A stretch of 62,761 nucleotides of DNA from Solirubrobacterales bacterium (GCA_049593795.1 JBAWHK010000016.1:1-62761); one strand, 5' to 3'; counted from the first letter of the stretch, positions 990-7,970 are shown. The notes: generated by a model not told the origin, from the letters alone. Numbers and translations: made by a program.

Positions 990-1301
990 TCAGGCGCCGA
1001 TGTCCAGCCTTATCCGTGGCGGCAGCAGTGCTTCGGGAAGGGTGGTGCTTTGCGCTGCCCTGCAGTTGCCTCGGCGTCCCCGCTCAGGGCGTTTCGTTTC
1101 TGCTGGCTGGTGACGACGCACCCTTTCCGTTCTGGTCGAAGGTTTCGACCTCGAGCGGCCCGGCTGGCAGGTGGATTCAACCATCCTGTGCTGGGGCACA
1201 TCCGGGTATTCGAGACCGTATTCACCGAGTGTGGCGAACTCGATCATGAGGTCCAGGGCATCGGCGGCTTTAGCCGGAATCTTTCTGAGGGATACGAACA
1301 T
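990..1301 (-). CDS. Hypothetical 103-aa protein whose ATG lies inside a LexA box; coding status uncertain
   Basis: The ATG at 1301-1299 sits inside the perfect SOS box, with TACATT just upstream. The N-terminal part (IPAKAADALDLMIEFATLGEYGLEYPD) looks protein-like, but the C-terminal half is basic and low-complexity. I recognised no family. Confidence 0.35.
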   Translation of the reverse strand: MFVSLRKIPAKAADALDLMIEFATLGEYGLEYPDVPQHRMVESTCQPGRSRSKPSTRTERVRRHQPAETKRPERGRRGNCRAAQSTTLPEALLPPRIRLDIGA

Positions 1302-1472: not shown

Positions 1473-4400
1473 TTACCGGCCACGACGACCGAAATTCTGT
1501 CCTACCGGGGCCAGCGACTTGATCGAAGGATCGGCCGGTTCGATCTCCGCGAGGGCGTTGACGATCAGATTGACCACCCCCTGATTGGTCTCGATTCGGC
1601 CGCGGGCACGGAGCAGGGTCGCGTTGCGAATCACCAGCCGGTACTTGAGCGCGACCCGGGAGGGCGTGATCAGGTTCAGCGTGCCGAACTCATCTTCAAT
1701 CAACAGGAAGATCGTGCCGTGGGCGGTTTCCGGCTTCTGCTTGGCCACCAGCATCCCGGCGACTTCGGCCTGGGTCTGGTCAGCGGACTCCGCAGCCTGG
1801 ACCGTGTTCTTTACATGAGTCTGGAGCCCCGGCCGGATCAGCGCCATCGGGTGTCCTTCAAGGGTCATGCCGATAGTTCCGTATTCAGCAGCGACCCTGC
1901 TCCACTGCTTCGGCTCCTGCAGCTCGGGGCTCTCGCCGGCCTCAAACGGCAACGACAGTTGCCGGCCGCTGGAATTGCTGGTGCCAGTGGTGGTAAGCCC
2001 AACGTTCCAGAGCCCTGACACCCGGTCACCTTTCGGCAGCGAACGCAGCGCACCGGCCCAGGCCAGTTGTTCAAGTTCCTGTCGGCGCAGTGGCATCCTT
2101 GAAGAGAGCTCACCCAGGCTCCTGAAAGGGCCGCCGCGATCCCTTTCACTGACCAGGGCCTGCATCTCTTTCTCCTTCGCACCCTTGATGTAAGCCAGTC
2201 CGATACGTACGGCCGGCTGGCCTTTCGGATCCTCCCTTTCTTCCGGCAGCCACTCGGTGGTGCAGTCAACCCGGCTGGAATTGAGGTCCGGGGGCAGCAC
2301 TGTCACCCCGGAGCGCCCGCCCTCCTGGACAAGTGAATCCGGCGGGTAGAAGCCCATTGGCTGTTCGTTCAGCAGGGAGGCAAGGTATTCCGGTGCGTAA
2401 TGAACCTTGAGCCAGGCGGACTGATAGGCCAGGAGCCCAAAAGCTGCGGAGTGGGCCTTGGGGAAACCGAAACCGGAGAAGCCGATTATCTGGTTGAAAA
2501 TGTCATTGGCGACAGCCAGGCTTACGCCTTTTCCGGTTGCTCCTTCGATGAAACGGCGATGGTGGGCTTCCAGGGCCTGCCGGGAACGCTTGCGGCTCAT
2601 CGCCCGGCGCAGCGACTCGGCTTCGGAAGAACTGAAGCCGGCCACGTTCATTGCGACCTCGATCACCTGCTCCTGAAAAATGATCACCCCGAGGGTTTCC
2701 TCCAGTACCGGTCTGAGCAGTTCGTGCTGGTACGGCACTTCGTAAGCCGGGTTTTCCCTCAACCTGCGGCGCCGCTCGATGTAAGGGTGGACCGCACCGC
2801 CCTGGATCGGACCGGGGCGGACCAGGGCCACCTGGATGGTCAGATCATCGATGTTCATCGGCTTCAGGCGCGGCAGCATCTGCATCTGCGCCCGGCTTTC
2901 GATCTGGAAGACACCGGTCGTATCGGCCCGGCGAATCGCCTTGAAAGTCACCTCGTCCTGCAGGTCGATGCGGCTGAGGTCGACTGTCTCGCCGCGGATC
3001 CGGTTGATCTCGTCAACACAGCGTTCGACCGCGGACAGCATGCCCAGGCCGAGCAGATCGATTTTGAGGAAACCGGCGTCCTGGCACGAATCCTTGTCCC
3101 ACATCACGATTTGTCGTTCTTCCATCGCGGCCGGCACCACCGGGCAGATCTCAACCAGCGGTTTGGTCGAAATGATCATGCCGCCCGAATGTTGCGAGGC
3201 ATTGCGCGGAACTCCCCGGGATTCCTTGACCAGCCAGGAAAGGTTTTTCCAGCCGGTCGAATGTGCCCTTTCGGCTCCAACCGCACTGATCAGATCCCGT
3301 TGGAGGTCATCCGAGCCACCGTAGAAATCGACCGAGCGGGCGGCCCTTTCGATCTCCGCTGCCGGGATGCCCAAAGCTTTGCCGAATTCGCGAATCGCAC
3401 CCCGGGAGCGGTAGGTGGGGAAAGCCGCGACCAGGGCCGAGCGGTCGGCTCCGTAACGCTGGTGGATCCTCGGGATCAGCTTGGCCCGGATGTCGCGGGG
3501 GAAATCGAGATCGATGTCCGGGGCGGAGGTCACCTCTTCATTCAGGAAACGGCCGGGGAAAAGGTTGGCTTTGACCGGATCGACATGGGAAAGGCCAGTC
3601 AGGTAACAGACGATTGAACTGACGCTGGAACCACGTCCGCGTCCCGGTGGCAGCACCGAACGGGCCGAAACCGGCCCACGGACTTCGGCGGCGACATCCC
3701 GGGCAAGTTCAAGCAGGTCGTGGTGGAGCAGGAAGAATCCGGAGAGGCCGAGACCGCGGATGATCTTCAATTCATTTTCCAGGCGCTGCCCTGCTTCTTT
3801 TTCCTGTGGTGTTCCCCGGTAACGCTCGACCAGACGGGTGGCAGTGAGTTCGGCCAGGGAACCATCGGCGGTCGGGTCGTCCGACTGGGGGTAGCGGTAA
3901 CCGAGTTCTTTCTCGAGGTCGAACTTGAGCCTTTCGGCGATGTTGACGCTCTCGGCGACCGCTTCCGGGTACATCCTGAAACGGTTGGCCATCTGTTCCG
4001 GGGAGGCCAGCGATGAGGTCGAATTGCCGCGCCGCCGGGGCTCCGAGCCTTCCATGCTGGTTCCCAGCCGGACCGCGACCAGAACGTCCTGCAGCCGGGC
4101 CCGTTGCGGGTTGTGGCTGTGCACGTTGCCGGTCGCGACGGCGGGCACCCCGATGCTTCTGGCAAGGCTGCTCAGCCAGCGGTTGCGGGCCCGGTCGTGA
4201 CGCCAGTAAGGGCGCTGGATCTCGATTCGCAGGTTCTCCGGGCCGAACCAGCCGATCAGCCTGCGGGCGAGCTCTTCGCCCCGGGCCAGGTCACCGTCGG
4301 CCCAGGCGGACGCAATCAGGCCCTGTCCGGCACAGCCGCTCAGGCAGATCAGCCCTTCGGCCCTTTCGGCCAGCGCTTCGAGTGGCACCGATGGCTGGGT

Positions 4401-4736
4401 GGCCCGACGGGTTGGTTCGTTACGGGTGTGGGCGTGGGCGGCGGTCAGCAGCCGGCAGAGGTTGCGATATCCGGTCGTGTCCTTGACCAGCAGGGTGAGG
4501 TGGAAGATCCGGCCATTCAGCGAGACGCTCAGTTCGGTCCCGGTAATCGGTTTGATGCCGGCCCCTTTGCAGGCAGCGGCAAATTCCATGGATCCCCAGA
4601 CCCCATCGTGGTCGACCAGGCCAAGCGACGGGTAGCCCAGATCGGCTGCGCGTTCAGCCAGTTCCAGCGGGGATGAGGCACCGTCCAGGAAAGAAAAAGA
4701 CGAGTGGCAATGAAGTTCGATGTACGGCGCTGACAC
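1473..4736 (-). CDS. dnaE2: Error-prone DNA polymerase III alpha subunit DnaE2 (ImuC)
   Basis: 1087-aa ORF with an N-terminal PHP domain (YIELHCHSSFSFLDGAS). Its length and co-directional linkage to an imuB-like gene behind a LexA box fit DnaE2 rather than replicative DnaE1. Confidence 0.92.
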   Translation of the reverse strand: MSAPYIELHCHSSFSFLDGASSPLELAERAADLGYPSLGLVDHDGVWGSMEFAAACKGAGIKPITGTELSVSLNGRIFHLTLLVKDTTGYRNLCRLLTAAHAHTRNEPTRRATQPSVPLEALAERAEGLICLSGCAGQGLIASAWADGDLARGEELARRLIGWFGPENLRIEIQRPYWRHDRARNRWLSSLARSIGVPAVATGNVHSHNPQRARLQDVLVAVRLGTSMEGSEPRRRGNSTSSLASPEQMANRFRMYPEAVAESVNIAERLKFDLEKELGYRYPQSDDPTADGSLAELTATRLVERYRGTPQEKEAGQRLENELKIIRGLGLSGFFLLHHDLLELARDVAAEVRGPVSARSVLPPGRGRGSSVSSIVCYLTGLSHVDPVKANLFPGRFLNEEVTSAPDIDLDFPRDIRAKLIPRIHQRYGADRSALVAAFPTYRSRGAIREFGKALGIPAAEIERAARSVDFYGGSDDLQRDLISAVGAERAHSTGWKNLSWLVKESRGVPRNASQHSGGMIISTKPLVEICPVVPAAMEERQIVMWDKDSCQDAGFLKIDLLGLGMLSAVERCVDEINRIRGETVDLSRIDLQDEVTFKAIRRADTTGVFQIESRAQMQMLPRLKPMNIDDLTIQVALVRPGPIQGGAVHPYIERRRRLRENPAYEVPYQHELLRPVLEETLGVIIFQEQVIEVAMNVAGFSSSEAESLRRAMSRKRSRQALEAHHRRFIEGATGKGVSLAVANDIFNQIIGFSGFGFPKAHSAAFGLLAYQSAWLKVHYAPEYLASLLNEQPMGFYPPDSLVQEGGRSGVTVLPPDLNSSRVDCTTEWLPEEREDPKGQPAVRIGLAYIKGAKEKEMQALVSERDRGGPFRSLGELSSRMPLRRQELEQLAWAGALRSLPKGDRVSGLWNVGLTTTGTSNSSGRQLSLPFEAGESPELQEPKQWSRVAAEYGTIGMTLEGHPMALIRPGLQTHVKNTVQAAESADQTQAEVAGMLVAKQKPETAHGTIFLLIEDEFGTLNLITPSRVALKYRLVIRNATLLRARGRIETNQGVVNLIVNALAEIEPADPSIKSLAPVGQNFGRRGR

Positions 4737-4748
4737 GGGCTTCCAAAC

Positions 4749-4994
4749 TCAGGCGCGCTGTGCGAACCATTGGCCGGATGGGAAGGCCTGGAACACGGTC
4801 AGGTCACGTCCGTCGATCAGGACGAGTTCGAAGTACCAGCGTTTGATTGGCGCTGCGGTCCACCAGCCGTCTTCGACTATCCATTCTTCGCGCACGGCAA
4901 CCACGTCAACGTCGTTGACCTGGATCGGGGTGCGGTGGGTGTCGCTGGCGACCTCGATGGGCCGTGGTTCATAGAGGCGGGTTGCTTTAGACAA
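4749..4994 (-). CDS. Hypothetical 81-aa Trp-rich protein embedded between imuB and dnaE2
   Basis: A TTG at 4994-4992 lies 9 nt after GGGAGGG. The stop is 12 nt upstream of the dnaE2 start. The sequence (EEWIVEDGWWTAAPIKRWYFELVLIDGRDLTVF) looks globular. The ORF-track ATG at 5063 falls inside the palindrome and was rejected. Confidence 0.55.
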   Translation of the reverse strand: MSKATRLYEPRPIEVASDTHRTPIQVNDVDVVAVREEWIVEDGWWTAAPIKRWYFELVLIDGRDLTVFQAFPSGQWFAQRA

Positions 4995-5026
4995 AAGAAA
5001 CAACCCTCCCAAAGAAAAACCCAGCT

Positions 5027-5069
5027 CTGGCAATGAATTTACGTCTATATGACGTAAATTCATTGCCAG
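5027..5069. repeat. 43-bp perfect AT-rich palindrome (19-bp arms, 5-nt spacer)
   Basis: CTGGCAATGAATTTACGTC TATAT GACGTAAATTCATTGCCAG. I checked by hand that the arms are exact reverse complements. It sits in the imuB to small-ORF gap. Confidence 0.95.
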
Positions 5070-5113
5070 TCTTTGTGGGGTTGGGGTTCTGTTTGCTTTG
5101 AGGGATCAATTTG

Positions 5114-6313
5114 TTACTCCGAGAGGTAAGGGGTGAGCAGCATTCGCCGCTCCGGCAGGTGGGAATCGATTTCGGCGTTGAGCACACGCATCAGGCCGCT
5201 CTCGCCGACCGCAGCCCGAACCTGCTGCGCGGCTTCATCAAGGCGCTGCGAACGGGTCTGGTCGGGTTCGTGGGTGAGTTCGATCTGTTCCGGGGCGCCG
5301 GCCGCAAGGTCGGTCACCCGCAGTTTCAGTTTCTCGGCCGGGCGTGGCAGGTATTCCAGGCCAGGCAGGAGGATCAGGCGCAGCATGTCGGCCCGGGCGG
5401 TGGGGCGACGCGGAGTTACATCACGGGTCCAGCTGCCACCATCCGCCAGTTTCGCTTCGATGATCACCTGACGCGCCGTCAGGCCGAGATCGTCCAGCCT
5501 TCCGGCCAGACGGTCGCAAAGAATGCCCATCGCGCCCGAGAGGTGGATCCCGGAAGCGACCTCAGGCAGGTCCAGCTCTTCGAATATTTCCTCTTTCGGC
5601 ACTCGCGGCTGGATGTCCGTTTCCGCGCCAAGGGCAGTGTTACGGGCTTCGGTGCCGAGATGCCCGAAACGGTCGGCGATGTCATTGCCGGAGAGGGCAG
5701 TCAACTCACGCAGCCGGGTGATGCCGAGCTTGTGCAGGGAACTGACCATGCGTCGTGTGCTCACCGTTGAACCACTGAGCCGGCCGATCAGCACGGTCGT
5801 CGGCAGGCCAGCCAGGAATTCACGCAGTTCATCCGGCGGCACGACCCGGGGAATCGGATGACCGGCTTCCTGGGCTGCGGCGAAAGCCGCGAGGCGGGTT
5901 GGGGCGGCGCCGAGCCGCACGCTCCGGCCAAGGCGCCTGGCGGTGGCGGTCAGTACGCCGTCGAGACTGCCATAGAGCCTCTGGATCTGGTCCGCCCGGA
6001 AGAAAGCTTCGCCGCTGCTGCCGGATTCGACTTCAGCTCCGATTGCTTCAAGCCGGGCGAGGATGGTCTGCCAGAGGCTCTCGGCGTAGCTCGGATCGGG
6101 CGTGATCAGGACCAGGGCAGGGCAGATGTCGATCGCTTCTCCAAGTCCCATCCCGGCACGAACACCGAGGCCGTGAGCGACCGGAGAAACCTCGCCGACA
6201 ACCTGTGGGGCGTCGTGCTGCGGGGCCAGAGCAATTGGCTCCAGCAAACGGTTCTGAGACTTTCCGAGGGCGGCACGCAGGGCCAGAAGGGGGAGGATTA
6301 CGGAAACGACCAT
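5114..6313 (-). CDS. imuB: ImuB-like inactive Y-family DNA polymerase
   Basis: Y-family-like fold with the catalytic acidic positions apparently lost. The N-terminus VVSVILPLLAL aligns with IIHVDMDCFFA of DinB, and GSSGEAFF aligns with SLDEAYL. It lies directly upstream of dnaE2. The preferred start is ATG 6313 (MVVSV), 4 nt from the LexA box. Confidence 0.8.
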   Translation of the reverse strand: MVVSVILPLLALRAALGKSQNRLLEPIALAPQHDAPQVVGEVSPVAHGLGVRAGMGLGEAIDICPALVLITPDPSYAESLWQTILARLEAIGAEVESGSSGEAFFRADQIQRLYGSLDGVLTATARRLGRSVRLGAAPTRLAAFAAAQEAGHPIPRVVPPDELREFLAGLPTTVLIGRLSGSTVSTRRMVSSLHKLGITRLRELTALSGNDIADRFGHLGTEARNTALGAETDIQPRVPKEEIFEELDLPEVASGIHLSGAMGILCDRLAGRLDDLGLTARQVIIEAKLADGGSWTRDVTPRRPTARADMLRLILLPGLEYLPRPAEKLKLRVTDLAAGAPEQIELTHEPDQTRSQRLDEAAQQVRAAVGESGLMRVLNAEIDSHLPERRMLLTPYLSE

Positions 6314-6316
6314 ATA

Positions 6317-6330
6317 CGAACGTATGTTCG
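6317..6330. promoter_or_regulatory. LexA (SOS) box, perfect palindrome, overlapping the imuB promoter/start
   Basis: Sequence is CGAACGTATGTTCG. On the minus strand, TACGTT (TANNNT) lies inside the box and ends 6 nt before the ATG at 6313. Confidence 0.8.
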
Positions 6331-6416
6331 CACAAAGACAGCACGGAAGCAACTGCGAAATCCGGATTATGCGGGGCCAATGGATTGGCTTCCGGCTGAT
6401 GGTTCACACTGTTTCC

Positions 6417-6749
6417 ATGGCCAAAACTTCGAAGTGCGACTGGTGTGGGACTGAAGTTCTCGACGGCGACGGTTACCGGCTGATTCAGCCGAAGCGGAGC
6501 CTCGGGGCGACCTTTGACCGACTCGAGCACGTAATTCCATGGCTGATGAAGAAAGACGACTGGCACATCTGGTCCGGTGTCGAGGTGCCCGAAGGCGCAG
6601 CCACAACTTCATCGCAGACCGGAGAAGACCTGAACGAGAACGCCATATACCTGGTCCATCACCGCGACGGTGAACGGATCCCGGACGGTTTCAATGACAA
6701 GAGTGAAGTTGAAGCCTGGGCCAAAGCCGGAGGCCGCTGGAAGAAATAG
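6417..6749 (+). CDS. Hypothetical 110-aa protein, divergent from imuB
   Basis: The ORF reads MAKTSKCDWCGTEV... and has plausible codon usage. I recognised no family. The start is uncertain; alternatives are 6369 and 6399. It lies about 90 nt from the imuB LexA box. Confidence 0.6.
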   Translation: MAKTSKCDWCGTEVLDGDGYRLIQPKRSLGATFDRLEHVIPWLMKKDDWHIWSGVEVPEGAATTSSQTGEDLNENAIYLVHHRDGERIPDGFNDKSEVEAWAKAGGRWKK

Positions 6750-6812: not shown

Positions 6813-7970
6813 CTAGCCCTGGTTCTTCTTCTGCTTCTTCTTGTTGGTCTGCTGCTTCTTCTGGCCTTGCTTCTGGTTCTGGCCTTGCTTCTGGTTCTGC
6901 TTCTTCTTTTGTGACTGCTGATTCGGCTGCGGGGTGGGCACCGGCTCTGGCTCCGGTACCAGTGAATTCGCAAAAGCCTTGATCGCAACGGCTGTCTTGG
7001 CCGGAGCTTCGATCTGGGGTGAATGGCCCACGCCCGGGATCAGCAGGGTCTGAACGTCGGGAATGGCGGCATACGCGCTGAGTGATTCACGGGCCGAATA
7101 GATCTGGTCCTCCTCACCGAAGATCACCAGCAACGGCACCCCGGTCGCTTCCAGCCTGTCGTTCAGCGGTTCAGCATCGGTGTACTCGACCGAAGCGTCA
7201 TAGGAACCCGTGTAAGACGGATAGGTCATCTGCCTGACGTCGTCGATGTACTTGTCCGGCACGTCAAACCCGGGAGCGAACCCCTGAGCGACGTTCCTCC
7301 GGATCAGGAAACTTGGGGCCACCCGCCACATGGCCTGACCCAGCAGCGGCCACTGCGCAGCCTTGGCACCGCCGGACAGACCACCGAAACTTGAATCGGG
7401 GCCGATATTGATCAAAACCACCCCGGCAACGAGTTCCGGTGAACTCTCGGCCAGCGCAGTCGCAACCTTGCCGCCGAAAGAATGGCCGACCACCGTGGCC
7501 AGCCCGACATCAAGTTCACTCAGGACCTGGGCGACCAGGCTGGCCTGCGACTCGACCGAATAACCATCTTTCGGTTTGCTCGACCCGCCATAACCGAGCA
7601 GGTCGATCGCGATTACCTCGTTGCCCGTGCTGAGCAACGGCAGGACATCATCCCACCAGTTGATCGCGCCACCCGAACCGTGAATCAGCACGATCGGCAT
7701 AGCTTCCCCGGTTGCGACACCGCCATCCGAGAGGTCATTTCGCACCGGCTCGGTCGGCCCTGACTGGAGAACCTGAAGCGGTCCAGAGGTCGTTTCCACG
7801 AGCGTCGAACCGAAGGTGGTTTTCGATGCGGGCTGGGTCTCGTTATTGAGCGCGAAGGCGTTCAGTACGATCAACACGAGCAGCATCAGCAGCAAGCCGA
7901 AGATGATCTTCAGGCCGCGGCCTTTGCGGGAGGTCTTGCCCCGCCTCGAACGTGATGAAGTCTGTGCCAT
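6813..7970 (-). CDS. Alpha/beta-fold hydrolase, N-terminal membrane anchor, polybasic Lys/Gln-rich C-terminal tail
   Basis: Carries HGSGG and GHSFGG (nucleophile elbow) motifs. There is a basic N-terminus plus a TM segment (IIFGLLLMLLVLIVL). The tail reads QSQKKKQNQKQGQNQKQGQKKQQTNKKKQKKNQG. Confidence 0.85.
   Translation of the reverse strand: MAQTSSRSRRGKTSRKGRGLKIIFGLLLMLLVLIVLNAFALNNETQPASKTTFGSTLVETTSGPLQVLQSGPTEPVRNDLSDGGVATGEAMPIVLIHGSGGAINWWDDVLPLLSTGNEVIAIDLLGYGGSSKPKDGYSVESQASLVAQVLSELDVGLATVVGHSFGGKVATALAESSPELVAGVVLINIGPDSSFGGLSGGAKAAQWPLLGQAMWRVAPSFLIRRNVAQGFAPGFDVPDKYIDDVRQMTYPSYTGSYDASVEYTDAEPLNDRLEATGVPLLVIFGEEDQIYSARESLSAYAAIPDVQTLLIPGVGHSPQIEAPAKTAVAIKAFANSLVPEPEPVPTPQPNQQSQKKKQNQKQGQNQKQGQKKQQTNKKKQKKNQG

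Follow-up and report, generated by a model that had tools for sequence, protein, structure and literature searches.

A cassette of three co-directional genes in a stretch of 62,761 nucleotides (nt) from a Solirubrobacterales bacterium (GCA_049593795.1 JBAWHK010000016.1:1-62761; hereafter the window, on whose whole length all positions are numbered) very probably encodes a split-ImuB mutasome under SOS control, of the kind published as DnaE2X-iPolY-ImuB-C-RecA, with ImuB-C supplied by an 81-amino-acid (aa) open reading frame (ORF) lying between an imuB-like gene and dnaE2. Judged by homology, this small ORF is a standalone ImuB-C: the beta-barrel domain with which canonical ImuB ends has, in this cassette, a gene to itself. 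Such a system is already known, the same architecture having been described in 2013 (PMC3765255), by Timinskas and Venclovas in 2019 (PMC6511836) and by Timinskas et al. in 2026 (PMC12926913), and the small gene is neither a new subunit nor a replacement for ImuA. A preliminary description, made from the sequence alone, had offered the small protein as a candidate new accessory subunit of the mutasome or as an ImuA substitute. The first proposal survives in part, as homology and context point to a mutasome accessory, although one that is not new, being ImuB-C; the second does not survive, for reasons given below.

The minus strand carries all three genes (Table 1), which bears out the shared direction already reported in that description; Pfam and NCBIfam matches agree with the names of the two flanking genes. 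The signals around the small ORF are likewise exact in the sequence as described: the TTG start (4994-4992) follows GGGAGGG after a 9-nt gap, and the TGA stop (4751-4749) precedes the GTG start of dnaE2 at 4736 by 12 nt. The start that yields 81 aa matches the start position of 81-aa homologues. An alternative ATG at 5063, which would give 104 aa, sits within a hairpin in the spacer upstream, and its extra N-terminal residues are uncovered in every homologue (54-83% of the 104-aa query matched). The upper end of the imuB-like ORF moves from 6313 to 6352 if an upstream TTG is taken as its start.

Table 1 Features of the cassette and their positions in the window.
Feature	Position	Strand	Basis or remark
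dnaE2, error-prone C-family polymerase, 1087 aa, nearest to the published DnaE2X group	1473-4736	-	NCBIfam, pairwise scores
Standalone ImuB-C domain protein, 81 aa	4749-4994	-	Homologues, profile matches to ImuB C-termini, BLASTP, AlphaFold2 model
Shine-Dalgarno-like GGGAGGG	5004-5010	-	9 nt ahead of the small-ORF TTG
43-nt perfect hairpin, 19-bp stem	5027-5069		Within the 119-nt spacer that parts imuB from the small ORF
imuB-like gene, predicted catalytically inactive Y-family polymerase (iPolY/'ImuY'), 399 aa, without ImuB-C	5114-6313	-	Pfam, alignments
Tail motif S-H-L-P-E-R-R-x-L-L-T-P, aa 384-395	5129-5164	-	Conservation in tails
iPolY tail: RecA N-terminus-like (RecA-NT) motif, RSQRLDEAAQQVRAAVGESGLMRVL, aa 354-378	5180-5254	-	Alignment
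QIELT, aa 343-347, at the aligned place of the beta-clamp-binding QxxLF	5273-5287	-	Function inferred; degenerate
LexA (SOS) box-like palindrome CGAACATACGTTCG	6317-6330		16 nt upstream of the imuB-like start; exact pattern match

When the small ORF and 19 homologues were scanned with Pfam and NCBIfam, nothing rose above noise, and it was because neither database matched that the preliminary description could not place the protein in a family. Profile, hhalign and BLASTP comparisons place it in ImuB-C. A profile of the family searched against 1.84 billion representative proteins gave 953 matches (E<=1e-3); 126 of the 150 best were proteins of at most 130 aa, and in longer proteins (P0096, 525 aa; P0108, 484 aa; P0144, 576 aa) the domain occupies the extreme C-terminus, behind an IMS Y-family domain. 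This placement is upheld by two independent tests, one on canonical cassettes and one on published standalone proteins. Canonical cassettes were drawn from plasmids and reached via dnaE2, a tblastn search of the imuB-like protein against plasmids having given no match. In one such cassette, annotated imuA/Y-family polymerase/error-prone polymerase, Pseudomonas ImuB matched the profile at residues 411-468 of 471, and hhalign related the small-protein family to it with 90% probability for a narrow alignment (A1) and 95.6% (E 1.2e-8) for a broad one (A3). The ImuB of Manganitrophus, from a lexA-containing cassette, scored 30 bits (hmmsearch). Among published standalone ImuB-C sequences (supplement of PMC12926913), BLASTP with the window protein alone recovered Dehalogenimonas ADJ25744 (E 4e-15) and Sphaerobacter ACZ39476 (E 1.4e-11) over their full length; the broad A3 profile gave 86 and 84 bits for these two proteins and 22 bits for Deinococcus deserti ACO47649.

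The predicted structure and the pattern of conserved residues agree with this assignment. The AlphaFold2 model of the small protein is all-beta, with six strands and no helix (predicted local distance difference test score 86.3, predicted template modelling score 0.73). A Foldseek search of this model against the PDB gave nothing at E<=0.001 (best E 1.1), and a PDB sequence search with the single sequence and the profile found no relative; ImuB-C itself is described as a beta-barrel that is not SH3-like and has no close relative in the PDB (PMC12926913). The domain was named by Aravind et al. in 2013, whose definition names a C-terminal Trp under strong conservation, basic residues that are also conserved and the lack of a catalytic signature (PMC3765255). 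Across 68 diverse family members, W38, W44, W45, R52, Y54 and the C-terminal Trp, W76, are invariant, and the small protein fits the 2013 definition because this Trp is invariant and the Arg conserved. Its 81 aa and predominance of beta-strand also lie within what is expected of the ImuB-C superfamily, about 80-100 residues and mainly beta-strand.

The alternative put forward originally, that the small protein represents a family not known before and substitutes for ImuA or ImuA', is in our judgement very improbable. It draws on the absence of imuA from the cassette, the window and the related loci, together with the lack of any Pfam or NCBIfam match to the ORF, but is countered by the homology of the protein to ImuB-C, fused and standalone alike, and by its architecture: it is all-beta, has 81 aa and showed no similarity to the ImuA or RecA seeds in phmmer, where a RecA-like alpha/beta fold of about 200-250 aa would be expected. 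Canonical ImuBs that work with ImuA carry the same domain, which therefore coexists with ImuA rather than replacing it, and the RecA-NT motif of the iPolY tail offers another route to a RecA-like partner.

Independently of its family, the small ORF is a genuine conserved gene. Five of its 81 residues are Trp, and a word-indexed search recovered 42 protein clusters of 58-91 aa with 56-91% identity to it; the named clusters are labelled 'hypothetical protein' and come from Solirubrobacterales or Actinobacteria metagenome-assembled genomes. The family alignment contains 27 invariant columns. When one genome from each GTDB species was scanned with alignment A1, relatives turned up in 235 genomes, from which 80 loci were kept (locus counts refer to these unless stated); all 80 are from Thermoleophilia (Solirubrobacterales, Thermoleophilaceae and Conexibacter), and the best (L013) is 96% identical. 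In 79 of the 80 loci the gene directly upstream of the small ORF is an imuB homologue; the contig of the remaining one ends 140 nt upstream. Because it recurs in 42 conserved clusters and 235 species genomes, at the same position in every locus examined, the ORF is more than a product of chance.

The spacing of the genes is tight in most of these loci, with the imuB stop at most about 50 nt from the small ORF and the dnaE2 start at most about 150 nt past the small-ORF stop, typically 5-30 nt. In the gene-called loci L001-L004 and L006-L008, imuB stop and small-ORF start overlap by 4 nt. The preliminary description had suggested a survey of whether homologues always sit between imuB and dnaE2. 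The upstream half of that arrangement holds in 79 of the 80 loci, as noted, but dnaE2 is displaced by 1-7 kilobases (kb) in some Thermoleophilaceae; imuB and imuB-C adjoin and dnaE2 lies 0.6-7 kb downstream or outside the fetched sequence in L051, L054, L057, L059, L061, L063-L065, L068 and L069, and equally in L072, L074, L075, L077, L079, L081, L086 and L091, loci that are mostly labelled Thermoleophilaceae.

These data also bear on whether the split is damage or an artefact, that is, a frameshifted or interrupted imuB whose C-terminal part is non-functional. This would fit the 119 nt and the inserted hairpin that part the two ORFs in the window, where many relatives overlap, and some 'fusions' in the databases are clearly frameshifted gene calls. 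We nevertheless regard it as almost certainly wrong, as imuB and the small ORF are separate in 80/80 loci and fused in none, the locus alignments show a separate ATG or TTG start for the small ORF at the homologous place, its 56-91% identity extends across lineages with Trp, Arg and Tyr positions invariant, and most of the best representative matches are short proteins, as given above. Two further database entries, P0147 and P0148, appear to be fusions of ImuB-C to PHP and were considered as Rosetta-stone support; they were rejected, as their long Arg/Pro-rich stretches look out of frame, and they are most likely frameshifted gene calls spanning the imuB-C/dnaE2 junction rather than real fusions.

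The upstream partner of the standalone ImuB-C is a Y-family protein (Pfam IMS and IMS_C) that is predicted to be catalytically dead: relative to E. coli DinB, D8 is replaced by Ile, D10 by Pro and D103 by Gly, with E104 retained. Its whole length can be aligned with the iPolY ('iPolY-wE2X') published for Sphaerobacter (30% identity, E 3e-26), and likewise with that of Dehalogenimonas. Its tail presents, in order, a Q-x-x-L element, a RecA-N-terminus-like stretch RLDEAAQQVRAAVGESGLMRV and an S-x-x-PERR-x-x-L-x-P motif. The first of these, QIELT, aligns with 'QETLF' and 'QGSIF' of published iPolYs and lacks the aromatic residue; the Q at the clamp position is at least 90% conserved in Thermoleophilia tails, in which the second downstream residue is mostly Leu. 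By alignment, the tail appears to hold a RecA-N-terminus-like motif, as aa 354-378 align both with RecA of E. coli and Sphaerobacter (residues ~6-30) and with the part of published iPolYs that carries RecA-NT; the Pfam RecA model gave no score on the tail. The third element, S..PER..L.P, is kept in at least 90% of Thermoleophilia tails and is found in the Sphaerobacter and Dehalogenimonas iPolYs. It occurs too in the fused proteins P0096, P0108 and P0144, and in fused ImuBs it stands directly ahead of the linker to ImuB-C.

The downstream protein carries PHP, DNA_pol3_alpha, finger and HHH_6 domains (Pfam) and scores 972.7 bits against NCBIfam NF004225 'error-prone DNA polymerase' (cut-off 939). 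Its N-terminal 400 aa, which include the PHP domain, are more similar to DnaE2X of Sphaerobacter (49.5% identity, 310 bits) and Dehalogenimonas (42%, 266 bits) than to DnaE2A from the imuA-containing cassettes of Pseudomonas and Paracoccus (33-34%, 147-159 bits), suggesting that the DnaE2X group is the closest to the window DnaE2. A phmmer search (E<=1) with proteobacterial ImuA seeds and RecA, and no actinobacterial ImuA' seed, covered ORFs of 70 aa or longer and found none resembling ImuA or RecA, either in the 62.7-kb window or within +/-7 kb of the cassette in the 80 related loci. The earlier statement that the cassette lacks imuA and has a divergent gene of about 110 aa as its upstream neighbour agrees with these searches and with the family scans.

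Expression of the cassette is likely to be under SOS (LexA) control, as indicated by the palindrome ahead of the imuB-like gene (Table 1). Of 75 related loci, 55 have the pattern GAAC-N4-GTTC at -14 to -20, mostly at -16, relative to the estimated start of imuB, and a further one has it at -71, giving 56/75 within the interval searched, compared with a background of 0.13 boxes per kb.

Taken together, the cassette has every defining feature of the split mutasome that was testable; two others are less clear-cut, the clamp motif, for which QIELT is a degenerate candidate, and the absence of imuA, which covers the window and the surroundings of related cassettes. A mechanism can be proposed from published AlphaFold models and mycobacterial experiments, in which the C-terminal region of ImuB binds DnaE2 and ImuA' and is essential (PMC6511836). 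LexA cleavage would lead to co-production of iPolY, ImuB-C and DnaE2; iPolY would serve as a scaffold docking on the beta-clamp; its RecA-NT motif would dock RecA, which would stand in for ImuA; and DnaE2 would perform mutagenic lesion bypass. RecA has been proposed to replace the missing ImuA in genomes with the split system, in which imuA was not found (PMC6511836), and complexes of DnaE2X, iPolY, ImuB-C and RecA have been modelled with ImuB-C on the PHP domain of DnaE2 (PMC12926913). In the window, the RecA-NT motif in the ImuB-like tail would most plausibly compensate for the missing ImuA, pointing to RecA itself.

Several points weigh against the assignment to a split mutasome. The narrow profile is weakly similar to the ImuB-C proteins of Deinococcus and to ACV58046, and the clamp-binding motif is degenerate (QIELT compared with QxxLF). 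The DnaE2X assignment consists of pairwise scores over 400 residues, with no tree, and the absence of imuA refers to 62.7 kb and the surroundings of related cassettes, not to the whole genome. The proposed contact between ImuB-C and DnaE2's PHP domain and the part proposed for RecA are taken from models published for other species.

A different emphasis on the function of ImuB-C was given in 2013 by Aravind and colleagues, for whom the domain would be mainly a sensor of damaged DNA, or DNA-binding module, guiding polymerases to lesions rather than a tether for DnaE2. Standalone ImuB-C genes also occur beside genes for Pol IV, UmuC, Ku/ligase and photolyase without DnaE2 (PMC3765255), and the conserved basic and aromatic residues (R52, Y54, W38, W44, W45 and W76) would suit such a role. 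Against it stand the published multimer models, which put ImuB-C on the DnaE2 PHP domain (PMC12926913), and the almost constant joining of the gene to dnaE2 in Thermoleophilia. We consider a mainly sensory role unlikely, though not negligibly so, and the two roles of ImuB-C, sensor and DnaE2 tether, are compatible.

The closest known counterparts of the window cassette are those of Sphaerobacter thermophilus (ACZ39476) and Dehalogenimonas lykanthroporepellens (ADJ25744), with which it shares the order iPolY-ImuB-C-DnaE2, an ImuB-C of similar size (81 aa here, 93-95 aa there) and full-length sequence similarity, the nearest DnaE2, a homologous iPolY with RecA-NT and PERR elements in its tail, and the lack of imuA, seen here for the window. 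It differs from them in belonging to another phylum-level lineage (Thermoleophilia, Actinomycetota), with about 31% identity in ImuB-C, in its degenerate clamp motif and in the hairpin-bearing spacer between iPolY and ImuB-C. Within Solirubrobacterales, Conexibacter woesei is listed with one DnaE2X in a published genome table (PMC12926913). The imuY-imuB-C-dnaE2 operon of Deinococcus, which encodes an 80-aa ImuB-C, lacks imuA and is SOS-induced, has the same three genes in the same order, again without imuA (here, in the window) and under SOS control (predicted here from the box); experiments showed that ultraviolet mutagenesis in Deinococcus depends on ImuY and DnaE2. The Deinococcus operon includes lexA, whereas the window has a LexA box only, and the two ImuB-C proteins resemble each other weakly in sequence (22 bits for the broad profile).

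Two less direct comparisons can be drawn. The C-terminal domain of canonical ImuB (Pseudomonas; M. tuberculosis Rv3394c) is homologous to the small protein (the hhalign probability of 95.6% being for Pseudomonas ImuB), but there it is fused to the Y-family module and works with ImuA or ImuA', whereas here it is a separate polypeptide with no ImuA encoded nearby. Like UmuD' of Pol V and YolD/YqjX, ImuB-C is a small beta-rich accessory subunit whose gene lies beside that for a RecA-NT-bearing Y-family module (PMC6511836). Unlike UmuD' and YqjX, it has an unrelated fold that is not their SH3-like barrel (PMC12926913), and, in a further difference from UmuD', nothing in the sequence or the cited literature hints at its autoproteolytic activation, at which no test was aimed.

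The identification is mainly a correction of annotation for a family labelled 'hypothetical protein' and without a Pfam or NCBIfam match; the small ORF looks like an orphan to a reader without search tools, or to an automatic pipeline, because those two databases lack a match. With an ImuB-C label, the locus can be recognised as a split mutasome, complete and SOS-controlled, of uncultured soil Thermoleophilia, and the 235 GTDB species genomes widen a sampled diversity that has so far comprised the handful of genomes modelled. The questions of whether RecA truly replaces ImuA and of the physical role of ImuB-C concern the whole family and are not specific to the window. What novelty remains is small and lies in a covarying hairpin in the spacer and a putatively LexA-controlled ORF past dnaE2; that these could be new regulation or new components of an otherwise known cassette is a suggestion to which we give low probability.

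The spacer between imuB and imuB-C (4995-5113) is 119 nt long and lineage-specific; in relatives without the hairpin, imuB and imuB-C overlap. A 43-nt element with invariant CTGGCA...TGCCAG ends, confined to some lineages of Solirubrobacterales, occurs at the same place in six related loci (L013:6929-6971, L015:6944-6986, L016:6944-6986, L017:6947-6989, L032:6821-6863 and, in two copies, L028:6784-6826 and 6856-6898) and just past dnaE2 in L002 (11509-11551). Among these relatives, 10 of the 19 stem pairs differ on both sides, and 88% of cells pair, compared with 74% in shuffles. A terminator scan flags the hairpin solely on the strand opposite to the operon. Membership of a known RNA family was rejected, Rfam having returned sub-threshold microRNA noise only, as was a repeat, there being one true copy within the window; the exact sequence gave no match in JGI metagenomes. 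The hairpin could be an attenuator, an element of messenger RNA stability or processing, or a small palindromic insertion. If it does act in attenuation, processing or stability, expression of the scaffold may be uncoupled from that of ImuB-C and DnaE2.

The second candidate is an ORF of about 103 aa directly past dnaE2 (990-1301, minus strand); 31 of the 80 loci have it there. A perfect LexA box, GAACCTATGTTC, includes its ATG, and the LexA-like boxes of this region in the window, three in all, occupy 1295-1308, 1332-1345 and 1407-1420. One or two additional boxes are found upstream of the ORF in most of the 31 loci, at -43 and about -141, the third box in the window being at about -118. The protein has a conserved N-terminal motif (DLxIEFxTLGEYGLEYP) followed by a basic, variable tail; it belongs to no Pfam family, and homologues were found in Thermoleophilia only. 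It may be an additional SOS effector or a mutasome partner.

On the other side of the cassette, the divergent gene of about 110 aa (about 6420-6749, plus strand) begins with a CxxC that weakly recalls a zinc ribbon, and it matched no family. It recurs in 32 of the 80 loci, and in about half of these it directly flanks imuB in divergent orientation. The box at 6317-6330 is common to the two genes; since the gene recurs beside imuB and shares this box, it may also be SOS-controlled.

In ten of the loci (L053, L055, L060, L062, L070, L076, L083, L085, L087 and L088), about 530-710 nt of extra DNA lies between imuB and imuB-C. It contains either an opposite-strand pair of genes with weak DUF4926- and DUF6883-like matches, which may be toxin-antitoxin-like, or a coiled-coil-looking ORF of 120-135 aa rich in Glu, Arg and Lys; no ImuA-like gene was found in this DNA in any of the ten.

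A variant arrangement was observed on the megaplasmid of Thermomicrobium roseum (NC_011961.1), which carries, in order, a 'recombinase A' (357 aa), a 416-aa hypothetical protein and an error-prone polymerase. The 416-aa protein, upstream of dnaE2, has a WW...ELADG end that is weakly ImuB-C-like and non-significant; with a marginal match only (hhalign probability 0.3%), it was not used as evidence. The 'recombinase A' of this locus is suspected to be a RecA-like active variant of ImuA.

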